Below are positions 975 to 2,923 of a DNA stretch of 64,000 nucleotides, piece after piece (within the stretch, counting starts at the first letter, position 1; the number at the start of each line of letters is the position of its first letter). Both the position numbers and the translations under genes were made by a program. The notes under the pieces were generated by a model. That model did not search any database. It was not told the origin of the DNA and saw only the letters and a list, made by a program, of their open reading frames with translations. The stretch comes from Botryllus schlosseri (taxonomy: Eukaryota), in the NCBI GenBank assembly GCA_051294905.1, contig CM119372.1, positions 2,172,001 through 2,236,000 of the forward strand. The letters are read 5' to 3'.

Positions 975-2923
975 CTATTGATCGTAGTAACCTTTTGATT
1001 CGACTTCATCCATACCGTAGTATCCTCTGGATTCGTCCTCGTCGGCTTCGTCGTAATAGCCGAGTTCCTCGTCACCGGGCCACGCACGCCTGCGACTCAA
1101 ACTCACTCTACGTCTGCGCCGTCTATATAGTTCGGTTCGATTTATTAGCAATTTTTAACAGTTCAATACACCGCGAAAAATTGCCATACAATGAAAAAAA
1201 GGTGTCGACTAGTATTCATGTAGTAGAAATGGCTTGTATTTCGATTTGATTGTGGACACTCGGCATGCTCGTCGACTGTCGGATATCCGGCGGGATACTG
1301 CTCCACACGTCAGGTCCGGCGCATTTGATTAAGCGAGGATGTTTTTGATCGATAATATGAAAATGGGCGACATTGACGCGCGTGTGTCGTAGCGTACTTG
1401 TGCGCTATTGATTCCAAGGTAAAGAACTCATGGAAATATTCGGGGCAATCACCGCAGTGGAACTGATACATAAATTTGGCGATTTCTAGTTTCCGCATAT
1501 ATATTTTATGTTTAAGACAACGAATCTCTTCGGCAGTGGCTTGTTGGATGAACAACCAGGCCCCTTTGGGACCCTGTCTATGATACGGAGTACCTTGTGT
1601 TGTAGTTTTCGCAGTGGATCGAGTGAAGTTTTACTAGCAGCCCCTAACAAGGTATGCCATATTGTAACTTCGCTTGGACTAAGGATGTAAAGAGTATTAG
1701 AAGAACCCAGCCTGGCATGAAGCGTCTAAGGCCGTACAACAGGACACACTTCGGTGATAATTCAGCGTGCAGGGACTGAATATGACTCCTCCAAGACATG
1801 TCCGGGTCCAGTAAACCCCGAGGTATTTGGCATTTTTCGACTTGGAAATGGACTGACGGTTATTTGTTTTTATTTTACTTTCAACAATTGGGATTTCGAG
1901 GCGTTTATGCAAAGGTTATTTTGCGCCGTCCACTCATGCACTTTGGGCATTTGATCACCAGTGAGGGCATCCAACCGTGCCGTCGAGGATGCGGAAGAGA
2001 CGAGGTAAGTGTCATCAGCGAACAGTGTGGTGCTCAATGAGGAGGTTTCAGAAATATCGTTTACATATAAAGTGAAGAGGACCGGTCCTAGTACTGAGCC
2101 TTATGGTACGCCACAGGCCACCCGATGAGGAGACCACAAGGTGTGTGAGATTGCAACCATTTTTTGGCGTCCAGTGAGGAAACCTTTCCTGAGCTCAAGT
2201 TGTGCGCCGCGAAACCGTAACGCGCCAGTTTCGAGATGAGATTATTATGATCTACGCAGTCAAACGCTTTTTTAAATCACCAAAAATTCTACAACCCACA
2301 TTTCGCTTCTCTGAGATATCATTATACTGTTCAGCGACTGTTTACAGGGCATGTGAGATTTGGTGTTTGTTTCGGAAGCCAAATTGTTGAGGGGAAATGA
2401 CAGACATTTGGCGAGGAATGAGGATAGACGAGAGAGGAACAATTGTTCGAATACAATCCCTGTGCATGGGAGAACTCATAGCGGACAGTAGTTAGTGACG
2501 TTAGGTCTATCCCCAGCTTTATATAGAGACTACTTTGGATTTTTTTAGATAGCTTGGGTAGACACCATTTTCTATCATGAAGTTGAAAAAATGGATGGAA
2601 AATGAAAAATGAATATATAACGTCCGGTGTGTAAGCTTATCATTTTTAAAAACCATGATGAAAATTGGGGTGATAGCCGACGGCCTTGTGCGTTTTTAGC
2701 TTGTAGATGACTACTTCGGCTTCGTAATGCGTCGTATAGGCTCAAGTATCTATCTCGCTTCCTACCTGATCGTGGTGGTGACCACTCTCCTCCTCCTCCT
2801 AGTAACCACAAAGCGACGACGGCGAACCGTCGTCCAGCTTCTGCGCCTGGCGCTTTGGGCGTCAGCCAGTAGGACAAATCCGACGATGACGACGAGAAGT
2901 ATCAGTGCGGTTCTCAGCTGCAT
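975..2923 (-). CDS. Secreted cationic peptide precursor (antimicrobial-peptide-like), 101 aa, join(2766..2923, 975..1122) on minus strand
   Basis: Manual splicing (AG|gtagg donor at 2765, tatag| acceptor at 1123) gives MQLRTALILLVVIVGFVLLADA-QSARRRSWTTVRRRRFVVTRRRRRVVTTTIRRRRRRVSLSRRRAWPG-DEELGYYDEADEDESRGYYGMDEVESKGYYDQ*. This is a signal peptide, an Arg-rich core and an acidic tail. A 5'UTR intron (2931-2990, GT..AG) and TATATAAA at 3057-3064 lie upstream. Confidence 0.8.
1250..2570 (-). mobile_element. Degenerate non-LTR retrotransposon (LINE) RT fragment within the peptide gene intron
   Basis: Frameshifted RT remnants (LFADDT, KYLGV, MRKLEIAKFMYQFH); clearly homologous to 35050-36200. 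Confidence 0.8.

Follow-up and report, generated by a model that had tools for sequence, protein, structure and literature searches.

A spliced and expressed peptide precursor gene of Botryllus schlosseri with an Arg-block core and an acidic Tyr-doublet tail: a candidate new family of ascidian antimicrobial peptides

Described ascidian precursors and layout of the Botryllus product

In the Ciona screen of Ohtsuka and Inagaki (2020; PMC7387483), 17 of 22 antimicrobial-peptide candidates carry an anionic C-terminal region. The Ciona peptides KH.C7.94 and KH.C1.640 described there have a signal peptide, an Arg-rich, Cys-free core and an acidic C-terminal piece, and KH.C7.94, in which Arg triplets alternate with hydrophobic blocks, displays an MIC of 6.25 µM on both E. 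coli and S. aureus as the intact peptide. In styelins and clavanins of Styela clava, too, an anionic piece comes after the cationic peptide, and the precursors are cut before Asp, according to the same source; the clavanins are amidated (PMC8719109). Botryllin of Botryllus schlosseri is also secreted as a prepropeptide, in which a cationic peptide is combined with a propiece at the C-terminus; its 158-residue precursor holds a 37-residue helical KHK peptide with a charge of 11.2 (PMC9966394).

The gene characterized here lies on the minus strand at the start of the window, i.e. the whole 64,000-nt stretch of B. schlosseri contig CM119372.1 (assembly GCA_051294905.1, positions 2,172,001 to 2,236,000) that was analysed, and all coordinates refer to this window. 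Its Cys-free product of 101 residues consists of a 22-residue signal-like N-terminus, an Arg-block core, a Gly-Asp boundary and an acidic GYY tail. This signal, cationic and anionic order, pointed out in the initial annotation, is indeed typical of ascidian antimicrobial precursors according to PMC7387483, where the screen covered Cys-free proteins of 50-100 residues, an upper limit that the present product exceeds by a single residue. The parts of the precursor are the following.

2858..2923, minus strand: predicted signal peptide, residues 1-22, ending in Ala-Asp-Ala (from hydropathy)
2766..2857, minus strand: cationic core, first part, residues 23-53 (from sequence)
1077..1122, minus strand: cationic core, second part, residues 53-68, ending in Trp-Pro before Gly-Asp-Glu-Glu (from sequence)
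978..1076, minus strand: acidic tail, residues 69-101, with 13 Asp/Glu, 6 Tyr and a pI of 4.05
1053-1061, 1017-1025 and 984-992, minus strand: GYY units at residues 74, 86 and 97 (from sequence)

Judged by hydropathy only, the N-terminus resembles a signal peptide, as had been proposed: residues 8-18 have a mean hydropathy of 3.6, one Arg stands ahead of them and Ala-X-Ala occupies residues 20-22. Signal cleavage after Ala-Asp-Ala is favoured because a paralog read, translated by hand, diverges just past the matching site.

The five Arg blocks and three GYY units listed in the initial annotation are all present in the translated sequence, the blocks comprising 3, 4, 5, 6 and 3 Arg at residues 26, 34, 42, 53 and 63, respectively. 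The core (residue 23 or 25 to 68) measures 44-46 residues instead of the ~47 given earlier; it contains 21 Arg, bears a charge of +21, has no acidic residue, Cys or His, and holds one Phe. Its hydrophobicity varies with a period of ~9.5 residues, which was reached by 94 of 20,000 shuffles. That the core forms no amphipathic helix is evident from its best 18-residue helical moment of 0.299, a value reached by 4142 of 5000 shuffles, and its beta propensity (1.10) exceeds its helix propensity (0.98). In our own implementation of the filters of PMC7387483, 6 of 62 18-residue windows pass the cationic filter and 21 of 62 the anionic one. By the helix criterion of the same source the core is not helical, and the precursor is therefore not filed as a helical member.

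The tail has a net charge of -11 and contains neither Trp nor Phe; it begins at the boundary Pro-Gly-Asp-Glu-Glu. Its GYY units stand at intervals of 12 and 11 residues, and three such units arose in 2 of 200,000 tail shuffles. Two of the three are preceded by Arg or Lys and the first by Leu, the residues that follow being Asp, Gly and Asp, and Tyr75 and Tyr76 have 6 Asp/Glu no more than 5 residues away. Clavanin tails presumably hold several Tyr as well, in which case the GYY tail would be less unusual.

A comparison with the described systems brings the core closest in design to the Arg-block peptides of Ciona. The hydrophobicity (H) and moment of KH.C7.94 (-0.033 and 0.118; PMC7387483) nearly coincide with those of the present core (-0.03 and 0.113), and the core of KH.C1.640 ends in the same seven residues as a paralog core seen, after translation by hand, in the reads; four of these seven are Arg, and the identity may thus be convergence. 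The present core is longer than the Ciona peptides (44-46 vs 27 residues), more highly charged (+21 vs +11), and differs from them in its Val/Thr spacers and in its runs of up to six consecutive Arg. In the tail, Tyr doublets form a tandem repeat, whereas the Ciona anionic helices are mostly Tyr-poor in Table 1 of PMC7387483.

Styelins and clavanins, named as known examples in the initial annotation, turn out to be more distant than KH.C7.94 and KH.C1.640, the core being without His, KHK or an amphipathic helix. They are Phe- or His-rich helices of 23-32 residues, unlike the present core, according to PMC7387483, PMC8719109 and PMC10608444. The precursor was accordingly rejected as a member of the styelin/botryllin type (KHK; Phe-rich helical peptides of 31-37 residues), as it has no KHK or His and one Phe in its core, and as a member of the clavanin/clavaspirin type (His-rich 23-residue peptide; PMC8719109), as it has 0 His. 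None of the three botryllin epitopes in Table 4 of PMC9966394 was found by eye in the precursor. Since Arg-block peptides of Ciona are already in print, the design of the core is less new than had been implied.

Gene structure, splicing and transcription

RNA reads from four of the 24 listed runs (X1, X19, X21 and X23, X1 being used as contigs) were mapped to window 451-3450. Together with the sequence, they establish that the peptide precursor gene is real, spliced and expressed, and that it has four exons. The 'two-exon' description given previously holds for the coding part; the gene has two further, non-coding exons. The gene spans from ~3033 to beyond the window start, with the following features.

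3057..3062, minus strand: putative TATAAA box, 29 nt upstream of the presumed transcription start, its function judged from position
2991..3033, minus strand: exon 1, non-coding; read depth in 2951-3050 and none above 3050; 5' end ~3033
2931..2990, minus strand: intron 1, in the 5' UTR, 60 nt, GT..AG; joint 2930/2991 in 51 X21, 4 X19 and 0 X23 reads
2766..2930, minus strand: exon 2, coding from the ATG at 2923 (sequence and RNA reads)
1123..2765, minus strand: intron 2, coding, phase 2, 1643 nt, GT..AG (junction reads)
1141..2695, minus strand: decayed LINE fragment within intron 2, in the gene's orientation; upper limit approximate, RT-like fragments by eye
969..1122, minus strand: exon 3, with the end of the core, the acidic tail, the stop and 6 nt of 3' UTR (sequence and reads)
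54..968, minus strand: intron 3, in the 3' UTR, 915 nt, GT..AG; loose ends at 969 in 148 X21 reads and one X1 contig
1..53, minus strand: exon 4, 3' UTR, with AATAAA at 8-3; extends past the window start

The open reading frame of 101 codons on the minus strand joins 2923-2766 (158 nt) to 1122-975 (148 nt). In the sequence, its start codon ATG lies at 2923-2921 and its stop at 977-975, and the coding intron begins with a donor GT at 2765 and ends with an acceptor AG at 1124-1123. The junction 2766->1122, for which RNA-seq had been proposed as the check, was read exactly in 72 X21 reads (54 starts), in 39 X19 reads (18 starts) and in one X1 contig. None of the 340 mapped X23 reads carries the exact junction, but two carry a variant of the same junction. 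A variant form with codon 52 changed, by hand reading, occurs in 83 X21 reads. With the coding junction read in X21, X19 and X1, the splice is not a chance pattern. The acceptor of intron 2 has no pyrimidine tract, yet it is spliced, as seen from the sequence and the reads.

Transcription from the minus strand, as previously claimed, is borne out by the X19 reads on exon 3, which all run in one direction (depth 500 vs 0 at 951-1050) and thus fit minus-strand RNA. At the 5' end, 201 X21 loose ends at 3019 continue through the 7-mer at 3027-3033, and the sequence beyond this 7-mer is what we take to be the template-switch adapter. A transcription start near 3033 is inferred, partly from reads carrying variant letters, i.e. 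from alleles or paralogs. At the 3' end, the 30-letter consensus of the loose ends at 969 is identical to window 24-53 in 30 of 30 letters (20 located by program, the rest by eye), and related loose ends at 970 occur in X21, X23 and X19. Only 6 nt separate the stop from the last junction, a distance too short to trigger nonsense decay.

Read depth differs strongly between the runs. Over 2751-2850, X21 (12.9 million reads) has a mean depth of 265 and X23 (7.4 million reads) one of 4, so that exon 2 depth per read is ~37-fold higher in X21 than in X23, alleles and paralogs included; a difference of this size would fit restricted expression. An NF-kB-like site was found nowhere in 3034-4500 with two patterns.

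A decayed LINE makes up most of the coding intron, with a Pfam RVT_1 match (E 2.7e-9) at 1873-2100 and 82% identity over 879 nt to window 35342-36206. Its 3' end carries an AATAAA in the same sense as the gene and stops ~18 nt short of the coding acceptor (window 1123-1146). Two more decayed retroelement pieces with RVT_1 matches occupy 34321-37269, one of them being that which is 82% identical to the intron LINE.

Variant forms in the reads and searches for relatives

The reads contain more than the form encoded in the window. A frequent variant converts the stop to Glu at 977, extending the product by two residues up to a second stop at 971-969, and Arg85Lys (1027), Phe38Ile (2812) and Phe16Leu (2878) are frequent as well; one Arg codon is lost within a block (2787) in 113 of 255 X21 reads. 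The variants at 977, 1027, 2787, 2812 and 2878 may be alleles or close paralogs, which look the same in the reads. Variant 5' joints account for 227 and 90 X21 reads.

Larger differences are evident at loose ends, whose 30-letter consensus sequences were translated by hand and are given as separate ends, not as whole paralog sequences. Variant ends and joints occur at window 983, 1022, 2884 and 2912, some of the paralog ends having a short core and extra tail units. Those at 2884 (181 reads) read, when translated by hand, a signal peptide and then a different N-terminus. Those at 1022 (562 X21 and 415 X19 reads) show a core ending in four Arg and Tyr-Asp-Gln, followed by a Tyr doublet. An extra GYY-type unit in the tail is present in 511 X21 and 476 X19 reads, and one tail unit in the X19 consensus (415 reads) is Ala-Tyr-Tyr. 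The paralog loose ends (511 and 562 X21 reads) exceed the junction reads of the window form (72 in X21). These observations point to one or more divergent paralogs that resemble the window form in signal and tail and have another core, and hence to a small variable family. Within the window, tblastn of the product at E < 0.4 matched its own two exons only, with no second copy of the gene.

The homology queries were the coding exons taken separately, not the spliced product, which lowers their sensitivity, and the blank results are weak because short, low-complexity half-proteins were compared with mostly microbial collections. On these terms, exact sequence look-up matched 0 of 2 exons; among longer proteins, the tail exon drew 6 candidates, none at E <= 1, and the signal-core exon 237, none at E <= 10; and the tail reading frame drew no candidate among proteins of near length. 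The PDB returned 0 matches for either exon, Pfam none near the cut-off for the precursor, and the metagenome DNA pattern search 0 matches, and no match to the precursor stood among the genome contig matches listed. ESM Atlas gave no usable match for either exon, which is evidence of neither absence nor novelty. Two matches were examined and rejected: one among 1.84 billion representatives (P0001, E 1.2e-4), which is a repeat translation covering residues 12-41 only, and a weak 22-residue match among the listed viral-contig matches (L001), which was put down to chance.

Five peptide motifs of the precursor occurred in none of the open-access article texts searched, and the peptide was described nowhere in the literature searched by title or abstract start, including a Botryllus-specific search. 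The family is apparently undescribed, with no sequence relative in the databases searched.

Proposed function, alternative readings and window neighbours

The precursor is filed under none of the styelins, clavanins, botryllin or cionin. On the analysis as a whole, it probably belongs to a new ascidian antimicrobial-peptide family (a probability of about 0.62), the gene being a host gene of a small variable family that would encode a secreted defence-peptide precursor. The 22-residue signal would target the precursor to secretory granules, presumably in blood cells, and in the stored form its acidic tail (net -11) would partly mask the core (+21). Cleavage ahead of Asp70, together with amidation at Gly69, would then release a 44-46-residue peptide ending in Trp-Pro-amide, whose Arg blocks may bind anionic microbial surfaces and whose beta-prone Val/Thr/aromatic spacers may insert shallowly. 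Killing would proceed by carpet-like permeabilisation, or by cell entry and nucleic acid binding, not by a classic amphipathic helix, and the Tyr doublets in the tail probably carry sulfate or are converted to DOPA.

The antimicrobial reading is supported by the occurrence of the same signal, cationic and anionic order in most Ciona candidates. The Gly-Asp boundary fits the cleavage cited for styelins and clavanins in PMC7387483, Gly69 fits the C-terminal amidation of clavanins (PMC8719109), and a conserved signal with a different core in the reads is as in such peptide families. Against it, the negative charge of the tail is only about half as large as the positive charge of the core, and the Arg blocks are potential furin sites. 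The aggregation estimate (-27 to -29, unwindowed) is a rough value just inside the -30 cut-off of the -30 to 30 range in PMC7387483, and that paper reports no or weak activity for four Ciona segments with a low propensity to aggregate, of which three are Arg-rich. KH.C7.94 is listed there among the less salt-resistant peptides and as not LPS-induced.

The same features can be read in other ways. An uncut precursor might self-assemble, through its beta-prone spacers and the association of its Arg blocks with the acidic tail, and be cross-linked through DOPA from its Tyr doublets, with a role in tunic repair, adhesion or extracellular traps; the beta-prone core with its block period of ~9.5 would be consistent with such a structural polyampholyte, as would the presence of the botryllin propeptide itself in extracellular traps (PMC9966394). 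This reading is unlikely, in that 101 residues would be very few for a structural protein and the Gly-Asp boundary and the conserved signal with a variable core better suit a processed effector, although structural and antimicrobial roles can both hold. It appears improbable, too, that the tail is a cassette whose Gly-Tyr-Tyr units are excised, hydroxylated, dehydrogenated and decarboxylated into an Mm-1-type compound, or whose Tyr-Tyr becomes a botryllamide-type compound, the core perhaps being antimicrobial all the same. The backbones of tunichrome Mm-1 (Gly-dehydroDopa-dehydroDopamine) and of the botryllamides (apparently formed from a Tyr-Tyr dipeptide), that is Gly-Tyr-Tyr and Tyr-Tyr, occur three times in the tail; both are small metabolites with no precursor gene named in the available part of the 2010 review PMC3039461, which leaves a ribosomal or non-ribosomal origin open. 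The non-random recurrence of GYY, the Arg or Lys ahead of two units and the variants with a further unit favour this proposal. The tail, however, has no evident release site, no recognisable cut site follows its Tyr doublets, the first unit stands after Leu, the Ala-Tyr-Tyr of the X19 consensus implies that Gly is not invariant, and Mm-1 is a compound of Molgula. The acidic context of Tyr75 and Tyr76 moreover suits sulfation, and Tyr sulfation would block hydroxylation. A speculative and equally improbable combination is a two-product precursor, in which a non-helical Arg-block antibiotic core is joined to an expandable (Lys/Arg)-Gly-Tyr-Tyr tail serving as ribosomal source of Mm-1-type or botryllamide-type compounds. 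If this were true, these blood-cell metabolites of ascidians would be gene products that are modified after translation and whose precursor can be named.

The Arg blocks could alternatively be convertase sites, from which the spacers, 4-6 residues long with an amidated tripeptide as the last, would be freed to act as signalling peptides; the three blocks of 4-6 Arg conform to R-X-X-R, and furin is reported from morula-cell granules (PMC9966394). A polyprotein of this kind is likewise improbable: the spacers show no repeated motif, a Gly donor is present only at the last of them, runs of 5-6 Arg are more than a cut site needs, and the Ciona look-alike KH.C7.94 is active intact (PMC7387483). The poorest fit is a cionin/CCK-like sulfated hormone within the tail, where unit 2 reads two Tyr and then Gly-Met-Asp. 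Cionin does have two adjacent sulfated tyrosines, but Trp-Met-Asp-Phe-amide, essential for receptor activation according to PMC8149874, is absent from a tail without Trp or Phe, and such a hormone is very improbable indeed.

As for the antimicrobial-precursor reading, what is new is the long, non-helical Arg-block core together with the Tyr-doublet repeat tail, whereas the three-part layout is already known: Ciona antimicrobial precursors built in this way, even with an alternation of Arg and hydrophobic blocks, have been published (PMC7387483). A non-helical Arg-block peptide of 44-46 residues and +21 would widen the known tunicate antimicrobial designs. If the core is merely another cationic peptide, the result would be useful but unsurprising, given those Ciona precursors. 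The gene further represents an expressed peptide family missed by protein databases, and its GYY tail offers a concrete gene for asking whether tunichrome- or botryllamide-type metabolites have ribosomal precursors.

The remainder of the window holds several other elements. A Polinton/Maverick-like element at 39896-56127 has Pfam matches to an integrase with chromodomain, an A32-type ATPase, Bcl-2, a ubiquitin-conjugating enzyme and BIR; it contains three tRNA genes, at 40777, 41566 and 54708, and its open reading frames of 1314 and 443 aa resemble polymerase B and capsid by eye, with no Pfam match. At ~9700-18100 there are two divergently oriented, similar glycoside hydrolase 18-like genes in exon pieces, chitobiase-like by eye, with a weak Pfam GH18 match (E 0.088) and one exon without a PDB match. 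Upstream of the precursor gene, 21-nt inverted repeats at 4478-4498 and 6341-6361, 90% complementary and 1842 nt apart, may mark the termini of a small DNA transposon. At ~7800-9370 and 12000-12230 there are degenerate repeats of short period, in which GACTC/GAGTC units abound.
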